Source: a virus (lineage: Duplodnaviria; Heunggongvirae; Uroviricota; Caudoviricetes). Taken from it: a stretch of DNA of 34,807 bases. The stretch is taken from IMG/VR virus record IMGVR_UViG_2526164649_000022; one strand, written 5' to 3'. The notes beneath the pieces are model-generated. The model saw only the letters and a list, made by a program, of their open reading frames with translations, made no database searches and was not told the origin of the DNA. Both the position numbers and the translations under genes were made by a program. Shown here one piece after another: positions 12,686 through 34,807 of this stretch (position 1 is the stretch's first letter; each line of letters begins with the position of its first letter).

Positions 12686-12752
12686 GATTTCCGTGCTGAG
12701 ACGGCTACCTGAGGTGTACTGGCAATAGCGGACACTACCATTTGTTCTTTTT

Positions 12753-13571
12753 TTAAGCAGCCATCTGATGATATTTTTCCCTGAAGGCTGCCGGGGAGAT
12801 ATTCCCCAGACGAGAGTGACGACGCTGACGATTGTAGAAAATCTCAATGTATTCCCGTATTACTGAGATGGCTTCATCCCGGTTATTAAAACGATAGTGG
12901 CTCAGGCTCTCATTTTTCAGCGTTCCCCAGAAGCTTTCCATCGGAGCGTTGTCGTAACAGTTACCTTTACGCGACATTGATGTTTTCAGACCAGACTGCT
13001 CCTGTATGACCCGGTAATCGTATGCGCAGTACTGTGAACCTCGATCAGAGTGGTGGATTAGCCCGGCAGGTGGGCGCTGGCTCCTGAGCGCCATAAACAG
13101 GGCTTTACCTGTCAGCTCTTTTGTCATGCGCTCTCCCATGGCGTAGCCGACAATTTCACACGTATAAACATCTTTGATGCCAGCGAGGTACAACCATCCC
13201 TCCTGTGTGGCAACATACGTCAGGTCCGCCACCCAGACCTGATTTGGTGCTGTAGGAGCGAACGTCTGGTTCAGCAGATTTGGCGCAACTGGCAGATTGT
13301 GGTTCGGGTTCGTAGTCGCTCTGAACTTGCGTTTCTGCTTACAGCGTAGCCTTAGCTCCTTACGAAGACGTGCCAGTCGGTCACGACCAACGATGATGCC
13401 ATTCTCTGCCAGCTCCGTCTGGAGCCGCCGGGTTCCATATGTTTCGCGAGTGCGGATATGTGCCACCTTAATCTCCAGTTTTAGCCGCTCATCACTTTGT
13501 TTTCTGTCTGAGGGTTCATGCTGTACCCAGTTGTAATAACCGCTCCTGGATACACCAAATACCTGACACAT
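12753..13571 (-). CDS. IS600 transposase OrfB (DDE integrase domain)
   Basis: 272-aa ORF with IS3-family integrase features, downstream of OrfA. Confidence 0.9.
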   Translation of the reverse strand: MCQVFGVSRSGYYNWVQHEPSDRKQSDERLKLEIKVAHIRTRETYGTRRLQTELAENGIIVGRDRLARLRKELRLRCKQKRKFRATTNPNHNLPVAPNLLNQTFAPTAPNQVWVADLTYVATQEGWLYLAGIKDVYTCEIVGYAMGERMTKELTGKALFMALRSQRPPAGLIHHSDRGSQYCAYDYRVIQEQSGLKTSMSRKGNCYDNAPMESFWGTLKNESLSHYRFNNRDEAISVIREYIEIFYNRQRRHSRLGNISPAAFREKYHQMAA

Positions 13572-13606
13572 CGCTTCAATGGGAAATTGTTGTCGCCATT
13601 GTTCGA

Positions 13607-13909
13607 TTAACGCGTATTTTTCAGCGACTCCTGTGCAAAATACGCTGTTGCTTTTTTTAATATATCTCGCTCAAGGCGAGCTTCATTTAACGCCTTACGC
13701 AGTTGCAGAATTTCAGATTCCAGTTCAGCCACCGTGCGGGAACCAGGAGTACCGAGCCCTTTTCTGGCGGCGGTAACCCATTGTCCTAAAGTGCCTTCAG
13801 GAAGGGATAATCGGGAAGCGCCTTCACTGATCGAAAGTTGATTTTCAAGAACCGTTCTGACAGCTTCGGCTTTGAACTCTTTAGAGTAACGTTGGGTTTT
13901 TCTGCTCAT
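13607..13909 (-). CDS. IS600 transposase OrfA (HTH/leucine zipper)
   Basis: 100-aa ORF MSRKTQRYSKEFKAEAVRTVLENQLSISEGA..., typical IS3-family OrfA. Confidence 0.9.
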   Translation of the reverse strand: MSRKTQRYSKEFKAEAVRTVLENQLSISEGASRLSLPEGTLGQWVTAARKGLGTPGSRTVAELESEILQLRKALNEARLERDILKKATAYFAQESLKNTR

Positions 13910-13965
13910 TATTAGCTCCTTCTGATGCCATTCTATTTCAGGAAGGAGTGTCCGTTAAACTCAGG

Positions 13966-14181
13966 CTACCTCAACCTGTTGCCATACTGTTTCTCCAGTT
14001 GCTTTATCAGGCGGAACAACTGCCGCAGGGGCAGTTGTTCCAGGTACTGAATGCTGAATCGCGAAGACAGGTTAACCAGCAGGTTCATCAGTGCCGCCGC
14101 CAGCGGCATCAGTTCGCCCCCGCGTTGCCACCTCCTCAAGCATGTCATCCAGCACAGCCGCTTTCGTGCTGATAAGCTCAA
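13966..14181 (-). CDS. Frameshift extension frame of the tail assembly chaperone (G-T-like); last two codons and stop lie in the IS600 terminus
   Basis: ORF overlapping the 3' end of the chaperone gene in another frame, with a G5 run (C5 on plus strand, 14117-14121) at the overlap. Confidence 0.45.
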   Translation of the reverse strand: MSLSARKRLCWMTCLRRWQRGGELMPLAAALMNLLVNLSSRFSIQYLEQLPLRQLFRLIKQLEKQYGNRLR

Positions 14182-16510: not shown

Positions 16511-17087
16511 GGATCACGTCGTTAATTTCAGTGTGTTCGCCGCTGCGCAGTGTCGCCCCGAGGCGCAGGAAATCCGGGAGCGCGGCGAGATCAATCTCTT
16601 CATCCAGCCGGAATTCCTGCTCCCACGTCACCGCCCACATGGTGACACCCAGCCCGTCGAGGCTGACGGAGTAAATGTTGTCTGCCCGCACATCAGCAGC
16701 CATGCGTTCAGCCCCCATGCCCGCTGTGGCATCCGACGACAGCAGGCGTTTGATCACCTTTCCGGCCAGCACTTCACAGCGCACGTCGCGGGAATACCCC
16801 CACGAATCCGTCGCCATGATGTAAGCCACCCAGGTGACCAGACCGGACAGCCCGCCGCGCGGGTTGATATCCCGGACACGCAGGGCCGCGACACGGATAC
16901 AGCCGGTGCGACCGGACAGATAGCGTTTCACTTCATCCGGGCTGTTGAACTGGCCGATGTGACGCTCCACCACGTCAGCCCGGTCAGGGGTGTCCCCCTG
17001 AAGGGCCGTCTGCAGCCAGGCCACAATGTGCTCTGCGGCCGCAACGGTGCTCCCCGGTGTGCGCAGTTCAGGGCGTTGTTCTGTCAT
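16476..17087 (-). CDS. Virion/tail-completion protein (Mu gp37-like)
   Basis: 203-aa ORF in the head-tail joining block; gene-order inference. Confidence 0.5.
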   Translation of the reverse strand: MTEQRPELRTPGSTVAAAEHIVAWLQTALQGDTPDRADVVERHIGQFNSPDEVKRYLSGRTGCIRVAALRVRDINPRGGLSGLVTWVAYIMATDSWGYSRDVRCEVLAGKVIKRLLSSDATAGMGAERMAADVRADNIYSVSLDGLGVTMWAVTWEQEFRLDEEIDLAALPDFLRLGATLRSGEHTEINDVIHVRGDDGTETD

Positions 17088-17629
17088 GGCAGAACCTCCT
17101 TCCAGAAATGACTGATAACCTGTTGCAGCTCCTGCTGGCTGGCAGAAGACAGCCCCAGAAATTCACGTTGCGGAATGTTCATCATGCGGTGATGTGCGCC
17201 GACGGTCTGCCAGACCGGATATTTCAGCGCCCGCCCGAAACACTGCGAGATAAGCCGTTTGTGGGCGCTGACCGGCACGCTGCCGGAAAAGCCGTCATTC
17301 ATGATGCGGGCATAATCCAGCGGTGAACCGATACGCACCACGCGGTTTTCCACGATGTACTGGATACTCTCCAGCAGATGGCCTTCACCGCGCAGCAGAC
17401 TCTGGTTGCCGTGGCGGGTCTTTTTGTACCCGTCAGACCAGTCCGGCCAGCGTTCGCCACCCGGACTGGTTTTCTCATCGATGATGCGGCGGCGGGTCTG
17501 TGATTCCACCACCGCACCGATGCTTTCCAGCAGCTCTGACTGCAATGAACCCTCTGCCAGCTTTTCAACGGCGCGGCGGATATCCTCCAGACGCTGGTCA
17601 CCGCTGACCTGTACAGAAATCCCCATCAC
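17084..17629 (-). CDS. Virion morphogenesis protein (Mu gp36-like)
   Basis: 181-aa ORF with overlapping start/stop in the head-tail joining block. Confidence 0.5.
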   Translation of the reverse strand: MMGISVQVSGDQRLEDIRRAVEKLAEGSLQSELLESIGAVVESQTRRRIIDEKTSPGGERWPDWSDGYKKTRHGNQSLLRGEGHLLESIQYIVENRVVRIGSPLDYARIMNDGFSGSVPVSAHKRLISQCFGRALKYPVWQTVGAHHRMMNIPQREFLGLSSASQQELQQVISHFWKEVLP

Positions 17630-18063
17630 AGCACCCCTTTCAGGTTGTTACGGGTGAACAGCCGGGCATTGGCACCCACCACAATAATTTTCCCGTTGTC
17701 GGTTTCTGCCGGGGTGGCATACGTCGGCAGGCCCAGGTCACGGGTGCCGTTCGCCATTTCACGCAGGGTTTTAATGGCGTCGTCGTAGCGTTTCTGGATC
17801 AGCTCCGTGATTTGATTGTCACGCTCTGATAACCAGTAAAACGCCAGCGATACCGCCACGCGTTGCAGCGGGCGCGGGATTTCCGTCACCCCCAGCGGCA
17901 GCTGGTAGCGGCGGGACAGAAACGAATCAATTTCCGCTTCCGCATCACTGATGGCCTGACGGATTTTGTCTTCATCCAGCCCGTTGGTTTCCCGGTTAAT
18001 CGCCATGTTCCAGACAAGATTGCCGTCCGCGCGTAACAGATCTTCCTGCGTGATGTATCCCAT
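17626..18063 (-). CDS. Head-tail joining protein (Mu gp35/36-like)
   Basis: 145-aa ORF with overlapping stop/start codons on both sides. Confidence 0.5.
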   Translation of the reverse strand: MGYITQEDLLRADGNLVWNMAINRETNGLDEDKIRQAISDAEAEIDSFLSRRYQLPLGVTEIPRPLQRVAVSLAFYWLSERDNQITELIQKRYDDAIKTLREMANGTRDLGLPTYATPAETDNGKIIVVGANARLFTRNNLKGVL

Positions 18064-18374: not shown

Positions 18375-18445
18375 GACTCTGCCTTTTAAAAGGCAGTTAA
18401 AAGGGCATTCACAGCACCTTTTAACTGCGGTTTACGGATGACGGG

Positions 18446-19358: not shown

Positions 19359-20315
19359 TTACTCCTGTTTCGGTTTAGCGGCGAGGAACTCTTCCCCGGT
19401 AATACCCATGCTGCGACACATCGCCAGTTCGGCATCGGTCAGTGTCTGCGCGGGTTTATCCTTGCCCTGGCTGGGCTTGTCGTTGTTAACCAGCGGCTGT
19501 GCACCTTTGGTGTACTCCGCAAACTGTTTGCGGCCTTCTTCCGTGCGGCAGGTGGCAAGGAACATGTCACGGTTTGCCGGGGCGACTTTTCCGGCCCCGA
19601 TGGCCGCATCCACAAGCGCCTCGGCTTCCTTCTCTTCCAGTTGCTGAAGGCGTTTTTCTGCGGTTTCGGCACGGTTCAGTGCCAGATTGTGGGTTTCCAC
19701 CGGCACAAACTTCGTCAGGTCAGGTGTCTGTGCGCGGTTCAGCGCCACCTGTTCGTTCTCCTGAAGTTGTTTAATGGCGGCCACGGTATCGTCCACCGTG
19801 GCGGATTCAGCCAGCCCAAGCAGGCCGGTGATTTGCACAGGTACTGTCATCGGGTTTTTCTCCGTATTCAGTGCAGGAAAATCCAGGTTAGGTTTGTTGG
19901 TCAGCCCGACGCTGGACAGGCGCGTCACCGCACCGTCTGCGTCATGGAAAAACGCCGGGCTGTAATAGCGGTAGCGGCGCTCGCTCAGCATCCACCGGGC
20001 GGACTCACTCCAGACAACACGCCCTTCAATGGTGCCGCTGTCCGTCACCCGCAGTGCTTCCACCCAGCCATACGCCGGAGCCTCTTCACCCCGCGGGCCT
20101 TTAATTTCGGTGGCATGTTCAATGTCCACCGGAATGTTGATGTCGGACGAACGGGCAACCACCTCATGTGGATTGCGGTTCATCCACGTCCGGCCATCGC
20201 GCCCGGTGAACTCACCCGCAGGAACGAGTTCAAGCCATTCCGGCAGTTGAGCGGGTGTCAGCTCAGGGATGGGTTCTGGCAGGGAAAAACACAGCGCCAG
20301 CAGTTCCGGTTGCAT
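19359..20315 (-). CDS. Head maturation protease / scaffold (Mu I/Z-like)
   Basis: 318-aa ORF with coiled-coil C-terminal half, immediately upstream of capsid gene. Confidence 0.7.
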   Translation of the reverse strand: MQPELLALCFSLPEPIPELTPAQLPEWLELVPAGEFTGRDGRTWMNRNPHEVVARSSDINIPVDIEHATEIKGPRGEEAPAYGWVEALRVTDSGTIEGRVVWSESARWMLSERRYRYYSPAFFHDADGAVTRLSSVGLTNKPNLDFPALNTEKNPMTVPVQITGLLGLAESATVDDTVAAIKQLQENEQVALNRAQTPDLTKFVPVETHNLALNRAETAEKRLQQLEEKEAEALVDAAIGAGKVAPANRDMFLATCRTEEGRKQFAEYTKGAQPLVNNDKPSQGKDKPAQTLTDAELAMCRSMGITGEEFLAAKPKQE

Positions 20316-20364
20316 GTCAGTCTCCGTCGTCTGGGGTTACCGACGGTCAGTATGCGGAAGGCAG

Positions 20365-20390
20365 AAAAAAAGCCGGATTTACCGGCTTCA
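20365..20390 (-). terminator. Putative intrinsic terminator between F-like and I-like genes
   Basis: Minus strand reads AAGCCGG-TAAAT-CCGGCTT followed by a T run; identical 26-bp element recurs at 27916-27941. Confidence 0.5.
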
Positions 20391-20529
20391 CTGAAAACGG
20401 GGAAATACCCCCTTCAAAACCCCTTCAAAAACGCCACGGACGCTTCAAAAAAGCCAGGGTGTACATTCATGCCATCAGAATAAAAAACGCGTTTCTGATG
20501 CGTTTCAGGGGCATTTACGGCGGGGAGGG

Positions 20530-21294
20530 TTATTCACTGTTAAAACGGGCCTGTCTGGCCGCCAGCTGGCGCGCCAGCTCCTGCTCACGGTTTATGCCGG
20601 GATTGTAGTTCCAGCCCGGATCAATCCCTTCCGGCACCTCTTCCTCTTCGCCCGTACGTTTGTTCACCCAGCGGACAGTTCTGATTTCCGGCGCTTCGGT
20701 GTGAATGGTGCCCTGTGCCGCCAGTTGCGCATACTCACCACGGCTGACCTGACGGATGGTGCATTTGCAGCCCCAGCCGTTAGGGGCAAAATGCGTCTGC
20801 CAGAACGGATGCTCTACCGGCAGACACAGACGCGCCCATTTCACATGCTCCACCCGGTGCTCACGGGATGGCCCCAGCTCGTACATCAGATACGGCATGG
20901 CCTGCTTTGTCCGCTGAATGCGTTCCCACTGGCCCGCCGCGCGGGCGGTGCGCATGTTGGTATCAAAAATCGTGCGGAGGCGGCGGTCGCTGCCCAGTTG
21001 CACGGTGCGGGTTTCACCCGTCAGCGGATCATCCATCTCCTGTACGCCCCACCATCCGCGTTTTATCAGCAACGGTTGCAGCATCTCCTGGAACTCGCTG
21101 AACGTCTGCCCGCTTTGCAGGGCGTCTTCCACAAGGGCTTTCACATCCGACAACAAATCCAGTTGCAGCATTCTGGCCACGGGGAAGCTGTACCGGTGCT
21201 CTTCCCGCCACACATCCCGGTAATCAAAACCGGGACGCAGCTTCTTCGCCTTCAGCCACGCCAGCGCCTCTTTCGGGATGAGGGTTTCACGCAT
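20530..21294 (-). CDS. Head morphogenesis protein (Mu F-like)
   Basis: Downstream of portal; likely start MRETLIPKEALAWLK at 21294 rather than 21351, which would overlap the portal gene by 65 nt. Confidence 0.65.
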   Translation of the reverse strand: MRETLIPKEALAWLKAKKLRPGFDYRDVWREEHRYSFPVARMLQLDLLSDVKALVEDALQSGQTFSEFQEMLQPLLIKRGWWGVQEMDDPLTGETRTVQLGSDRRLRTIFDTNMRTARAAGQWERIQRTKQAMPYLMYELGPSREHRVEHVKWARLCLPVEHPFWQTHFAPNGWGCKCTIRQVSRGEYAQLAAQGTIHTEAPEIRTVRWVNKRTGEEEEVPEGIDPGWNYNPGINREQELARQLAARQARFNSE

Positions 21295-24390: not shown

Positions 24391-24968
24391 ACACTAATCC
24401 CCAGAATTTCACGTTTGATGGTGTCAGCCGCACCGCCTGACAGACCGCCCGCTCTGACCAGCTCTTCGGTTTTCTCTGCCATTTCCTGCGCAAACGCATC
24501 GCGGATTGCTTTTTCGCGTTTATGGCTGGTCATGGCTGCCGCTTCCAGACGCTGGGCAACCAACGCCAGTTGCCCCAGCGCCTTCGGTGCAACAGGTTTG
24601 TCGTCTTCTGTCATCGACATGGACGTTTCAAAGGCCAGCGTTTTTACAAACTCCATCAGCAGCCTGCCGACATCTAACGTCGGCGCGGAACCCAGCTTTG
24701 CCGCCCAGACTTCGGCCATTTCGCGGGAGGCGCGGATTTTTGCCCCGACTTTTTCCATGCGGCTGGCATAGCGGTTTAAGCCCGTCCGGCTTAACTGCAT
24801 CTCCCCCGGCAGGTTATGTTCGTCAATCAGGGCATTGATGGCTTCGCGGATTTCTTCCTGCGTGTGCCGCTTTTCCCGCAGCATCTGGTGTAACTGCTCA
24901 CGGATGCTGTCCGGGAGTAAATCCACTTTGGAAAGACGGCCACGGGTGGGGCGTTGTTCATTTTCCAT
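24387..24968 (-). CDS. Terminase small subunit-like protein (Mu gp27-like)
   Basis: 193-aa ORF immediately upstream of and overlapping the large terminase. Confidence 0.6.
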   Translation of the reverse strand: MENEQRPTRGRLSKVDLLPDSIREQLHQMLREKRHTQEEIREAINALIDEHNLPGEMQLSRTGLNRYASRMEKVGAKIRASREMAEVWAAKLGSAPTLDVGRLLMEFVKTLAFETSMSMTEDDKPVAPKALGQLALVAQRLEAAAMTSHKREKAIRDAFAQEMAEKTEELVRAGGLSGGAADTIKREILGISV

Positions 24969-25245
24969 CTTCTGTCCTCTGTGTTTTCAGACCGGCGTAT
25001 ATTTCTTCACGAACGGACTGAATATCCTTACCCAGCAGCTTCCACAGCCGCGCATATGCCGGTGATGAACGCAGGGCACGTTTCACGGGGGTATCCGGTG
25101 CATCCGGGTTCCAGGGCTTTCCGGTCTGTTGTTCGTATGTACGGACAATGGCGTTTTGCTCGATATCTGCCAGCACAAGGCAGTACGCCAGCTGCCGCAC
25201 GACGGCCCGTTCTCCACGACTTAACGGCTTCAGTTTTCGGGCCAT
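24958..25245 (-). CDS. Hypothetical phage protein upstream of terminase
   Basis: 95-aa ORF coupled to the small terminase gene. Confidence 0.45.
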   Translation of the reverse strand: MARKLKPLSRGERAVVRQLAYCLVLADIEQNAIVRTYEQQTGKPWNPDAPDTPVKRALRSSPAYARLWKLLGKDIQSVREEIYAGLKTQRTEDGK

Positions 25246-27915: not shown

Positions 27916-27941
27916 AAAAAAAGCCGGATTTACCGGCTTCA
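27916..27941 (-). terminator. Putative intrinsic terminator after the Mor-family gene (end of early/middle operon), upstream of endolysin
   Basis: 7-bp stem AAGCCGG/CCGGCTT, 5-nt loop, T7 tract on the minus strand; identical to the element at 20365-20390. Confidence 0.5.
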
Positions 27942-27945
27942 TTGA

Positions 27946-28395
27946 TTAAGGACGTCGTGGCGGACGACGAACGGGGTGAGGCAGGTTCGGGGAGTGGTAA
28001 AACAAATCCGGCTGGTATTTATTACACTCCAGACGCCGCATCCGCTTGATGGCCTTGTAGACGGTTTTATACGTCACCCCGTAACGCTGAACCAGTTCAG
28101 GAATATTATGGCCGTTAAAATCACGCCAGATACGCATATCCCGGACAAGATTCTCCAGAATATTCCCCCTCGGAACATAAACCTGCATCCCGCCGATATA
28201 GCGACAAATCGCCACAACCAGCTCAAGGGAATGGGCAGGGTCTGCGCCAATCCGGGCCAGCTCTTTACGCAGCAGTGCGTTCAGTTCAGAAAGTAACGCC
28301 GGATAAGCCGTGTTTTCCTGGTAATCGTTAAGGTATTCCAGAACGCTGTCGTCCCGGAAGTCTTCGAATAAATCCTGCTCTTTCATCTGTTTCAT
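27946..28395 (-). CDS. mor: Mor/C-family transcriptional activator of middle/late genes
   Basis: 149-aa ORF directly downstream of GemA-like gene with C-terminal helix-turn-helix region (ELVQRYGVTYKTVYKAIKRMRR), as in Mu Mor/C. Confidence 0.7.
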   Translation of the reverse strand: MKQMKEQDLFEDFRDDSVLEYLNDYQENTAYPALLSELNALLRKELARIGADPAHSLELVVAICRYIGGMQVYVPRGNILENLVRDMRIWRDFNGHNIPELVQRYGVTYKTVYKAIKRMRRLECNKYQPDLFYHSPNLPHPVRRPPRRP

Positions 28396-31445: not shown

Positions 31446-33273
31446 TCAGGCCAGCGGATCATCTTCTTCCTGCATGGCAAAAAGTTTTTGCATCCCCAGC
31501 CGGAAATCGCGTTCAAATTCTTCGTCATGCTCTTCTTCATATTCCGGTTGCTGAACTGCCACCACATTACCAACCGGGCGATAAACATTACTCAGCCAGG
31601 GTTCAGCCTGTTTGTGTTCCAGAATCTGAATACCTTCATCTTCAGCATCACGAATTTTTTCCTCAGCGCGTTTGCGCATTCCTTTAATACGCTGCTGTTG
31701 TTTGTGATATTCAGCACTGACAGCAAAGGCTGCGCGTTTATTGCCGTTCCATATCGCCTCACAGATAAAGCTGCCGTCCTTGCGACGTACCGTAATTCGC
31801 TCGGCGTCATGAATGTCATAACTGATAAGCACTTTGCGACCGTGTTCGTCACGCAACTCCGGCGCGTAGTAAATATTGTTCAGCCACTGAATTTCGCAGC
31901 GTCTTACCGGTCGTTCCACCATTGGGCGGAACATGTCGCGCAGCTCAAGATCACTCAGCCACTCAATTTCGGTGTCTTCTTCTGCCAGGCGTTTTTTCTG
32001 AACTCTGTCGGGCTGTAATGCCGTCCGTTCGGTTTCATCGGCAGCTCAGAATGCGGGCGGTTGTTGTACCATTCCACGCCTTCACGAATAGCCTCAATAA
32101 GCTCCGCCCACGATGGCAGCTCGCGCATTGCCGCTTTCTGGCGGTCGTTCAGAGGCTTGTCCTGTTGCAGGGCGTTAAACGCTGAACGCAGATCACGGTT
32201 AAGTACACGCAACGATTCCCGGTCAGCACCCTTGCCAAAATAGGTGCGATACCTCCTGGCTATACGCATCGGCAGTGTCCGGTTCAGGCGTTCAATAATG
32301 CCGCGTCCCTGTGGATTACCGGCAATACCGGTAGGGTGTTTAATCCCCAGGCGTGGCAGAATACCCACGACCTCTTTGTCCAGCATGTCAGCCGTTTCAC
32401 CGGAACCGTTATCCGAGTAATACAGGAACGGTTTTCCGTGGTTGCGAATGCCGTGCTGTATCGCACCGGCAACGGCGAACACGTTTTCGGCAAGGTCAAG
32501 ACTCCAGCCAACAACAAACCGTGTTCCACCATCGATCACAAACGTGACTTCCGGTGAGAATGGACGCCCGTGGATCGGATGCGCACATTTCAGCTTCATA
32601 CCGTGACCGTCACCAATCCAGACATAATTCACCGGCATAGCTGTCCAGTCGCGGCGGGTGAATCCTTCAAGCTGACGGTATTCACTGCCGGTAACGCGCC
32701 CTTTTTGTTTCACCACTTCCGGCAGTTTTTTCATGGCATACCGGACAACATCATAGGAAGGCATCACCTCCAGCATGTACGGTTCGTCCGCATGGCGACG
32801 CTGCCATTCTGCGACAAAATCCTCGTAGGCTTCTGACATGGGTCTGCCGTTCACCTGGCGATACTGCGCCAGAAATTCAGGCAGCCAGCTGATTTCTTCC
32901 GGTTTTATTTCGTCGCGTTTTCCCGGTGCCAGTAACAGCAGCCGTTCGGCGGCGTTCTGCGACTGGTTGTATTTCAGAACCCACTGGTAAAGTGGATCGC
33001 GGCTGATAGTACGATTAGCGCCACGTTTTGCATTGGCGTTAACTGCGGCCTGTTGCAGGCGCTCCGGCAGCTCACCTTTACGGGCTTTTTCAACAAGAAA
33101 GTTAATGGCTTTCAGTCGCCCGAGGTTACCGGCGCTTTCCAGCTTCAGCACTTCCACCACCAGCGCAGCTCTTGCTTCAGATACCCAGCGCTGGTTTTCG
33201 GTCAGCGCATTCAGGCGTTCTTCCATCAGTTGTGGAGAACCGCGATATGCTTCGATTGCCTGGACAGCGTCAG
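31446..33273 (-). pseudogene. A: Mu A-like DDE transposase, central and C-terminal parts, frameshifted in a T6 run (31992-31997) and severed from its N-terminus by IS600
   Basis: ORFs 31955-33322 and 31446-31934 align to consecutive MuA regions in different frames (...VWIGDGHG... catalytic core; ...NNIYY...DGSFICEA domain III). Confidence 0.8.
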
Positions 33274-33337
33274 TGAGGTAGCCTGAGTTTAACGGACACT
33301 CCTTCCTGAAATAGAATGGCATCAGAAGGAGCTAATA

Positions 33338-33640
33338 ATGAGCAGAAAAACCCAACGTTACTCTAAAGAGTTCAAAGCCGAAGCTGTCAGAACGGTTCTT
33401 GAAAATCAACTTTCGATCAGTGAAGGCGCTTCCCGATTATTCCTTCCTGAAGGCACTTTAGGACAATGGGTTACCGCCGCCAGAAAAGGGCTCGGTACTC
33501 CTGGTTCCCGCACGGTGGCTGAACTGGAATCTGAAATTCTGCAACTGCGTAAGGCGTTAAATGAAGCTCGCCTTGAGCGAGATATATTAAAAAAAGCAAC
33601 AGCGTATTTTGCACAGGAGTCGCTGAAAAATACGCGTTAA
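33338..33640 (+). CDS. IS600 OrfA (copy 2; one Ser-to-Phe difference from copy 1)
   Basis: 100-aa ORF identical to copy 1 except SRLSLPEG to SRLFLPEG. Confidence 0.85.
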   Translation: MSRKTQRYSKEFKAEAVRTVLENQLSISEGASRLFLPEGTLGQWVTAARKGLGTPGSRTVAELESEILQLRKALNEARLERDILKKATAYFAQESLKNTR

Positions 33641-33675
33641 TCGAACAATGGCGACAACAATTTCCCATTGAAGCG

Positions 33676-34493
33676 ATGTGTCAGGTATTTGGTGTATCCA
33701 GGAGCGGTTATTACAACTGGGTACAGCATGAACCCTCAGACAGAAAACAAAGTGATGAGCGGCTAAAACTGGAGATTAAGGTGGCACATATCCGCACTCG
33801 CGAAACATATGGAACCCGGCGGCTCCAGACGGAGCTGGCAGAGAATGGCATCATCGTTGGTCGTGACCGACTGGCACGTCTTCGTAAGGAGCTAAGGCTA
33901 CGCTGTAAGCAGAAACGCAAGTTCAGAGCGACTACGAACCCGAACCACAATCTGCCAGTTGCGCCAAATCTGCTGAACCAGACGTTCGCTCCTACAGCAC
34001 CAAATCAGGTCTGGGTGGCGGACCTGACGTATGTTGCCACACAGGAGGGATGGTTGTACCTCGCTGGCATCAAAGATGTTTATACGTGCGAAATTGTCGG
34101 CTACGCCATGGGAGAGCGCATGACAAAAGAGCTGACAGGTAAAGCCCTGTTTATGGCGCTCAGGAGCCAGCGCCACCTGCCGGGCTAATCCACCACTCTG
34201 ATCGAGGTTCACAGTACTGCGCATACGATTACCGGGTCATACAGGAGCAGTCTGGTCTGAAAACATCAATGTCGCGTAAAGGTAACTGTTACGACAACGC
34301 TCCGATGGAAAGCTTCTGGGGAACGCTGAAAAATGAGAGCCTGAGCCACTATCGTTTTAATAACCGGGATGAAGCCATCTCAGTAATACGGGAATACATT
34401 GAGATTTTCTACAATCGTCAGCGTCGTCACTCTCGTCTGGGGAATATCTCCCCGGCAGCCTTCAGGGAAAAATATCATCAGATGGCTGCTTAA
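33676..34493 (+). pseudogene. IS600 OrfB (copy 2), frameshifted by a 1-bp deletion
   Basis: Copy 1 reads AGCGCCCACCTGCC, copy 2 AGCGCCACCTGCC (about 34171-34176); ORF splits into 33676-34188 and 34269-34493. Confidence 0.8.
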
Positions 34494-34536
34494 AAAAAGA
34501 ACAAATGGTAGTATCCGCTATTGCCAGTACACCTCA

Positions 34537-34807
34537 CAGGATTGCGTGTTTTTCTGGTAACAGCTTTCACTTCAGAAACATTGTTCTCTGTAGCCACCAG
34601 CTGTTCCACATAGCGTTCACGCAGTGCCTTTCGTGTTATTTCAGGCAGACAATCAATGTGGTACTCAATGGCTTTTGTGCCTTCCCGACGGCGACTAACG
34701 TCACCAAGATCACGAGAAAAACGCTGTAACGCCTGTCGGATGCCTTTTGTGGTGGCTGGCATTCCTGGTACGCCGAGCAGGTCATTTACGGTAACGTACG
34801 ACTGCAT
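34537..34807 (-). pseudogene. A: N-terminal 90 codons of the Mu A-like transposase gene, separated from the rest by IS600 copy 2
   Basis: ...GTKAIEYHIDCLPEITRKALRERY resembles the recalled MuA N-terminus (...GGKAIEYNANSLPVEAKAAL...); in frame with the 31955-33273 segment once IS600 and one duplication copy are removed; ATG at 34805-34807. Confidence 0.75.

Follow-up and report, generated by a model that had tools for sequence, protein, structure and literature searches.

The 214-bp gap at 20316-20529, between the F-like and I-like head genes of a Mu-like prophage, is in our view explained by a central strong gyrase site (SGS) coupled to a cassette of terminator, activator site and late promoter for the head genes. 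We hold this reading, which comes from sequence comparison, with somewhat better than even confidence. The gap is homologous to and colinear with the SGS of phage Mu, right arm included. Most likely it is a further example of an arrangement known from Mu, and no new kind of element.

The window, by which we mean the whole stretch of 34,807 nucleotides that was analysed, is a transposable prophage of the Mu-like kind, oriented along the minus strand. Of 5,426 complete E. coli genomes, 49 carry prophages that match it at 96-99.5% identity. Along the minus strand the order is portal gene (PF06074), F-like gene, the 214-bp gap, I-like protease/scaffold gene and major head protein T. The features that matter here are as follows.

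17084-17629, minus strand: G-like virion morphogenesis gene (PF05069, E 6e-15; RefSeq annotation)
19359-20315, minus strand: I-like protease/scaffold gene, ATG at 20313-20315 (PF10123, E 6e-45)
20322-20325, minus strand: ribosome-binding site GGAG of the I-like gene (from sequence)
20343-20360, minus strand: predicted late-promoter core TTCCGCATACTGACCGTC, the Mu P_I equivalent, with -10 hexamer CATACT at 20349-20354 (alignment)
20365-20390, minus strand: 26-mer TGAAGCCGGTAAATCCGGCTTTTTTT, an intrinsic-terminator-like hairpin with T7 (terminator scan, fold)
20375-20390, minus strand: probable Mor-family activator site TGAAGCCGGTAAATCC, the 5' part of the 26-mer (shared with the lysis-gene upstream region)
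20392-20464, minus strand: predicted right arm of the SGS, phased T-tracts (five-lineage alignment with the Mu right arm; phasing)
20465-20468, minus strand: predicted 4-bp gyrase cleavage stagger GAAT in GGCAT^GAAT^GTACAC (alignment with the Mu cut site)
20469-20529, minus strand: predicted left arm of the gyrase site (inverted repeat, palindrome, AT-tract positions)
20530-21294, minus strand: F-like head morphogenesis gene (PF04233, E 3.6e-14; RefSeq annotation of a 99.5%-identical prophage)
27916-27941, minus strand: second exact copy of the 26-nt hairpin with T7, directly after the activator gene and upstream of the lysozyme gene
27946-28395, minus strand: Mor-family activator gene, with a 149-aa product (PF08765, E 4e-30)

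An earlier note on this DNA had called the gap the largest intergenic space of the late region, lying between F-like and I-like genes and free of any open reading frame of 60 or more amino acids. This description holds. The gap is the largest unannotated late-region space in the near-identical RefSeq prophage, and its flanking genes, both on the minus strand, belong to PF04233 (F-like) and PF10123 (I-like); the predicted gyrase site takes in, with its outer left arm, the 3' terminal bases of the F-like gene. A small-ORF search found nothing of 20 or more amino acids on the minus strand inside the gap. Two plus-strand ORFs that cross it (117 and 41 amino acids) match no Pfam family, and their frame is broken by 1-nt indels in relatives. 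We also looked for a conserved G-like ORF covering the repeats, and found none. It is true that Mu has gene G between F and I; here G is absent from the gap because the G-like gene has been relocated to 17084-17629, downstream of the head genes.

The kinship with Mu is evident from the layout as well as the sequence. In the Mu record the gap upstream of I contains, in order, the gyrase cut site at 17879/17880 (the central SGS), a predicted terminator and P_I, and the gap of the window likewise lies upstream of the I homologue. When the Mu region is searched with nhmmer against the 34.8-kb window, the single match is the gap, with colinear order and strand (E 0.036), and close relatives of the window give E-values from 0.0012 to 0.078. 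A direct Smith-Waterman alignment of the window gap to Mu reaches z 3.0 against 3.9 for its reverse-complement control, and so is not significant. As this pairwise alignment is no better than its control, the homology rests on nhmmer together with intermediate lineages, through which the gap is colinear with the SGS-P_I region of Mu. A search of the phage collection with the gap as query returned no significant match.

The first intermediate is TUM9757 (L003), a second E. coli prophage lineage with a Mu-type G-I gap. This gap is 69.9% identical to that of Mu over its full length (E 3e-11; nhmmer E 3e-32), and TUM9757 shares with the window 46 nt that are 93.5% identical (z 24). It carries TTTTTGAAGgttctGTGGCGTTTTTGAAGGGGTTTTGAAGGGGGTA in place of the Mu right arm, with a Mu-like C site and P_I further downstream. 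A third lineage, ECONIH5/CAVP776, matches the window in its F-gap-I layout, with an I gene that is ~70% identical; its arm, TTAAACGCGCCACAGCGTTTTTAAACGTGTTTTAAACGCGG, is intermediate in sequence. When five lineages are aligned, the repeats of the gap fall opposite the right arm of Mu.

Position is the second line of evidence. The central SGS of Mu (Pato, Howe and Higgins 1990; Oram et al. 2006; both as cited in PMC10052514) is needed for prompt replicative transposition and works best at the genome centre (PMC10052514, PMC11626157, PMC13284261, PMC6379681). The Mu site lies at 48.7% of the genome. In the intact relative NZ_CP065615, with ends taken from the end repeats, 48.3% of the prophage separates the gap from the repressor end; in the ECONIH5 prophage, with ends fixed by the split narX gene, the gap is ~49% along. 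It is thus near the centre of a transposable phage genome. In the window's own copy, IS insertions shift it to ~47%.

These insertions deserve a brief description of their own. Compared with the intact relative, the window has two IS600 insertions, in the tape-measure gene and the transposase gene (12710-13973, 33273-34537), and a third insertion of 1.3 kb with two ORFs at 970-2299, upstream of com. Given the insertions, and the IS600 in the transposase gene in particular, the prophage of the window is probably defective and its gyrase site slightly off centre. A segment of ~160 bp that the near-identical relative L002 has at 24968-25125, between a terminase small-subunit-like gene and the gene upstream, is missing from the window at 24965. 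The window also has a 71-bp gap at 18375-18445, after the major head gene, with a hairpin CAGTTAAAAGG..CCTTTTAACTG followed by a palindrome CCTTTTAAAAGG; this may be an attenuator or terminator.

The third line of evidence is helical phasing. The strongest AT/GC periodicity of the whole window at 10-11.2 bp, scored over 42-bp segments, falls at 20394-20435 (power 3.0; mean 0.44, sd 0.34). Periodicity also ranks first at the equivalent site in L002 and in the 40-kb ECONIH5 locus, where the repeats are different, and the right arm of Mu ranks second in 13 kb of Mu. Distances to the AT tracts, listed below, were counted from the 4-bp stagger set at 20468-20465. Aligning GGCATGAATGT with GGCATAAAATC of Mu (cut annotated at 17879/80) places the stagger within 2 nt of these positions, so that the register is within 2 nt of the GGCAT/Mu-cut alignment.

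Window, right side: AT-tract centres at +18.5, +39, +50.5, +63 and +72.5, with two more at +89 and +100
Window, left side: AT tracts at -15, -25, -36, -47 and -64
Mu, right side, the side that was compared: tract centres at +19, +40, +52, +62 and +74.5
Published gyrase consensus: tracts at +20.5, +40, +51 and +62.5 on the right, and at -17.5, -37, -48 and -60 on the left

The tract centres of the window agree with those of Mu and of the Topo-seq consensus to about 2 nt, and with the consensus they do so in both arms. In the right arm they recur every 10-12 bp from +18.5 to +72.5, a phased bending signal of the kind to which the activity of the Mu SGS has been assigned (PMC10052514, PMC11626157, PMC13284261). 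In Mu, the phased AT/GC signals of the right arm wrap the C-terminal domain of GyrA and present the DNA segment to be transported (PMC10052514, PMC11626157, PMC13284261, PMC6379681). The E. coli gyrase motif obtained by Topo-seq is ~130 bp long, with AT/GC arms and a 10.75-bp period (Sutormin et al. 2019, PMC6379681), and its consensus arm, ...CCTTTAAGGGGGCCTTTTGG, resembles the repeats of the gap. From homology, position and phasing together we infer that gyrase binds here.

We also scanned for the consensus itself, using stand-ins built from the 133-nt consensus rather than the Topo-seq weight matrix; these fail on the Mu SGS, which served as positive control. By base identity the gap ties for the top of the window at 57/133, a maximum that a scrambled consensus equals. 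The near-identical L002 is outside the top six by this measure and the Mu SGS itself scores only 43-48, and the scan is useful for register only. A correlation of strong and weak bases (G+C vs A+T) peaks at the cut site of Mu, at the homologous site of L003 and at 20464 in the window, where the local best fit to the consensus pattern is at 20464-20465; the Mu SGS ranks 3rd in 5 kb, L003 3rd and the window gap 24th. Two other scans were discarded, a summed strong/weak match that is dominated by GC content and an arm-only template that was uninformative.

The three exact CTTCAAAA repeats of the earlier note are present at 20412-20419, 20423-20430 and 20443-20450, just as it placed them. The 34.8-kb window has three copies, all within 39 bp, where ~1.16 would be expected by chance in the whole window; elsewhere in it, including the other late-promoter regions, the repeats are absent. 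They extend to CCCCTTCAAAA in two cases, with a diverged third copy. Read along the minus strand, the right arm that includes them is TTTTTTGAAG..GTGGCGTTTTTGAAGGGG TTTTGAAGGGGG TATTTCCCCGTTTTC. The repeat unit differs by lineage (TTTTGAAGGGG, TTTTAAACGCG, TTTTTAAACCGG): it is TTTTGAAGGGG in the window and L003, TTTTAAACG(T/C)G in ECONIH5, and TTTTTAAACCGG and TATTTAACGG in Mu. All of these lineages keep the 11-bp T-tract/GC phasing. Across the five-lineage alignment the T-tracts, AA dinucleotides and 11-bp spacing are invariant and the sequence of the unit varies, and therefore the conserved feature is the phasing and not the 8-mer CTTCAAAA.

Two smaller matters concern the same stretch. A mini-hairpin, GGGG..CCCC+GTTTT at 20399-20412, was considered as a conserved terminator; it has a weakened stem in 7 of 15 haplotypes of this lineage, and other lineages have a hairpin at the equivalent place. 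We also considered kinship between the gap repeats (TTCAAAA) and the transposase end sites, where the end repeats read TTCAAGATAA. The likeness is judged coincidental, because the match is only a 5-mer and has no counterpart in Mu.

Could the TTTTGAAGGGG repeats instead be sequence-specific sites for a protein other than gyrase, e.g. the late activator or a nucleoid protein, that regulates the I promoter or some DNA transaction? We think this unlikely, although several observations point that way. An exact 22-mer is common to at least four lineages with different flanks (L003/L043, L040/L050, L034 and L038), which could indicate sequence-specific recognition, the motif columns are conserved where the intervening spacers vary, and TGAAG is found both in the repeats and in the activator motif TGAAGCCGG. 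However, the other late-promoter regions of the window have no such repeats. ECONIH5 shares the activator motif and has an activator that is 65% identical, but TGAAG is missing from its repeats, TTTTAAACG; between lineages the repeats change, and neither the activator motif nor the activator protein does. In L003 they take the exact place of the right arm of Mu, and an intact Mu-like C site lies downstream of them. In two viral contigs, L040 and L050, they adjoin the I start codon, ending ~30 nt before it, which leaves no room for a downstream promoter and thus makes repeats and promoter separable. For all of these reasons the repeats are unlikely to be an activator array.

A further view is that TTTTGAAGGGG-TTTTGAAGGGGG is a portable module, exchanged among otherwise unrelated Mu-like phages and read sequence-specifically, either by some protein or by gyrase through a preferred, near-optimal wrapping sequence. 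This, too, strikes us as improbable. If true, the site would be a natural near-consensus 'super-SGS' with properties unlike those of Mu.

Several other occurrences of such repeats can be recorded here. The 22-mer in L040 (1867-2128) and L050 (3158-3419) lies before an I-like protease gene (PF10123) in a separate Mu-like lineage, without the hairpin cassette and with unrelated genes upstream. L038, a GC-rich viral contig of 41 kb, has the repeat 51% of the way along (1640-1920); the genes on either side of it, a Mu-type portal gene and an F-like gene, look convergent, which may reflect an odd arrangement or a misassembly. The IMG/VR contig 3300042691_026848 (L044, 12431-12796) has two clusters of five or six TTGAAGGGG-type repeats each; the adjacent ORFs show primase-like features in one case and a P-loop ATPase motif in the other. 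That contig is GC-rich and not Mu-like, and the clusters resemble replication-origin iterons that are probably unrelated to the gap repeats. A 22-mer scan of genome contigs gave 12 matches in unrelated organisms, which look like chance.

Downstream of the predicted gyrase site lies what is probably an activator site and a late promoter, the site being fused, to judge by the comparisons that follow, to a terminator in the lineage of the window. The 26-mer folds into a hairpin with an 8-bp stem, a 5-nt loop and T7 (-12.8 kcal/mol, z -3.4). Because it is invariant among 15 haplotypes (0/26 columns variable) it shows no covariation. Its second copy, at 27916-27941, occupies the position of Plys in Mu; in Mu a terminator is followed by a C-dependent promoter at both equivalent places (Plys after gene C, and P_I). 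The only motif common to the gap and the lysis-gene upstream region is TGAAGCCGGTAAATCC, and this is so in two lineages; TGAAGCCGGTWAATCC occurs only upstream of lys and of I, again in two lineages, as befits a site for a shared activator. In 40 kb of ECONIH5 the 16-mer TGAAGCCGGTTAATCC has exactly two copies, one upstream of lys and one upstream of I, and of these only the lys copy has the 3' arm of the hairpin and the T-run. As the I site of ECONIH5 has no hairpin, the shared element is the 16-mer, which aligns with the C-site region of Mu P_I.

The promoter itself looks like P_I, which the Mu record places at 17977-18043 (citing PMID 2522923). It lies upstream of I and has a -10 but no -35, and we found no full sigma-70(-like) promoter in 19800-21000. 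The -10 block CCnCAnACTGnC is invariant in five lineages, Mu included. From AATCC to the -10 there are 25 nt in the window, and 26 nt in ECONIH5 and in both Mu promoters, Plys and P_I; at this spacing the activator site would overlap the -35 region. Transcription is predicted to start near 20340-20343, which puts the dyad centre of the hairpin ~37 nt upstream; the difference from the -43.5 described for Mor and C speaks against our reading. The activators of the window and ECONIH5 lineages are 65% identical and become near-identical in the C-terminal part of the alignment, a part that overlaps the Pfam HTH matches at residues 94-121; that of the window is 32% identical to Mu C. Elsewhere in the prophage, the region upstream of the com/mom-like genes contains AAATACCCCC (877-890), which is similar to CATAAYCCC, the C half-site of Mu; the reverse complement of AAATACCCCC, GGGGGTATTT, is in the gap at 20403-20412. 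The mom-type promoter may thus use a site unlike that of the lys and I promoters.

With a promoter so close, the phased T-tracts might simply be curved DNA, UP element-like or a target of H-NS or Fis, that tunes late transcription without any special role for gyrase. The repeats are indeed ~57 to 108 nt upstream of the predicted start, and it is they that give the window its strongest helical-phase periodicity. That said, no promoter is possible downstream of the repeats in L040/L050, and published Plys reporters carried only -52 or -60 to +8 (PMC2582627). The central position in three lineages and the matching phasing on either side of one point would be left unexplained, and we rate this account as quite unlikely.

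The left arm is where the earlier note needs correction. It had placed a palindrome, AAACGCGTTT, at 20476-20485, which is 9 bases off (the actual position is 20485-20494), and proposed that it forms a minus-strand hairpin followed by a T-rich stretch, which a 10-nt palindrome without a loop cannot do. The arms of the actual inverted repeat are 8 nt long, CATCAGAA at 20473-20480 and TTCTGATG at 20493-20500; AAACGCGTTT sits in its loop region, and a T6 run is inside the loop and not after it. The inverted repeat folds weakly (-8.1 kcal/mol, z -1.7) and the terminator scan did not flag it. It is strongly conserved within the lineage (2/28 columns variable among 15 haplotypes) and absent from other lineages. 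The predicted cleavage core is variable within the lineage, at 8 of 18 columns, which counts against the gyrase reading.

The left arm resembles the 3' end of Mu gene G (CATCAGAAAACGCGT), with a 14-nt match that overlaps the inverted repeat. Such a match, and the presence of a G-like gene elsewhere in the prophage, would fit a gap that is only the decaying remnant of a lost or moved gene G, with no function beyond the promoter. The gap is also slightly less conserved than its flanking genes (92-94% vs 95-96% identity). But a length of 213-214 bp is kept in 46 genomes, the variation among 15 haplotypes is restricted to spacers, and the phasing is kept in lineages whose I genes are at most 70% identical, all of which makes decay a very unlikely explanation.

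That the gap encodes a small RNA, a structured leader or the processing site that the earlier note had also suggested, ending at the hairpin with T7, is highly improbable: there is a strong terminator at the 3' side and a weak Rfam match to sroD (20.4 bits), but that score is far under the family threshold of 50 bits (E 0.34), nowhere in the window does an Rfam family attain its gathering score, a sigma-70-like promoter was not found in 19800-21000, the gap folded as a whole shows only mild stability (z -2.05), and ECONIH5 has no hairpin at the gap site.

We return, then, to a central gyrase site with a late-promoter cassette, and to how it may work. Host DNA gyrase would bind the gap and cleave near 20465-20468, with the three TTTTGAAG repeats serving as the phased T-tract/G-tract signals of the right arm. 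As in Mu, this arm would wrap the GyrA C-terminal domain and supply the transported DNA segment, and processive supercoiling from the middle of the prophage may help to pair the two ends for replicative transposition. The hairpin with T7 probably terminates the lysis-to-F transcript. The 5' half of the hairpin, TGAAGCCGGTAAATCC, is probably bound by the single Mor/C-family activator of the prophage. Like C at Mu P_I, this activator would switch on the promoter of the I-T head operon, which has the -10 CATACT and no -35. The suggestion of a regulatory array is thereby borne out in part. The gap is non-coding and apparently functional and contains a candidate late-activator site, but this site is the adjacent TGAAGCCGGTAAATCC, which is shared with the region upstream of lys, and not the CTTCAAAA repeats, which are not shared. 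The idea that a host factor binds here is probably right, DNA gyrase being the likely factor.

How closely does the site resemble its model? Like the Mu SGS it is found upstream of I in a non-coding gap, 48-49% along the genome, with colinear, homologous sequence and an extended right arm towards the late-gene side that has T-tracts ~11 bp apart. It differs in that gene G flanks the Mu site and not that of the window, in its right arm, a near-perfect 11-bp tandem repeat of TTTTGAAGGGG with one unit more than Mu, and in its cleavage core, GGCATGAATGTACAC in the window vs GGCATAAAATCAGCC in Mu. The cassette compares in a similar way with the C-activated promoters P_I and Plys of Mu (Margolin et al. 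1989, PMID 2522923; PMC2582627). It has the same -10 region as P_I, CCGCAnACTGAC, no -35, an upstream activator site at a near-equal distance, an activator of the Mor/C family, and a terminator before the promoter at both the lys and I positions. Mu, however, has both Mor and C, whereas the window has one Mor/C-family gene; the site is TGAAGCCGGTWAATCC in the window and CATAAYCCC in Mu; and in the window lineage it is fused into a perfect terminator hairpin with T7.

The O157:H7 strain FRIK804 provided another prophage for comparison, which we take to be Sp18. It too has a non-coding gap with AT tracts upstream of I, and shares GTATTTAACGG with Mu, but it is without the TTTTGAAG repeats and its periodicity is weaker. 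Its gap was not detected by blastn with either the Mu gap or the window gap. According to PMC10052514, the Mu SGS can be replaced by the central site of a Mu-like, Sp18-type prophage from E. coli O157:H7. A point against our reading is that other gyrase sites tried in place of the Mu SGS failed to support Mu replication, with the exception of the Sakai prophage site (reviewed in PMC10052514).

The Mu SGS is the standard substrate for work on the gyrase mechanism and for cryo-EM. Natural right-arm variants that have equal phasing and different sequence could therefore be of use, as they could help to separate bendability from base identity. The cassette adds a candidate DNA motif for a Mor/C-family activator outside Mu. 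For the prophage family itself, which is found in ~1% of complete E. coli genomes (49/5,426), the reading favoured here would explain a conspicuous non-coding gap, and it would mean that the central gyrase site persists in lineages where gene G has left the locus.
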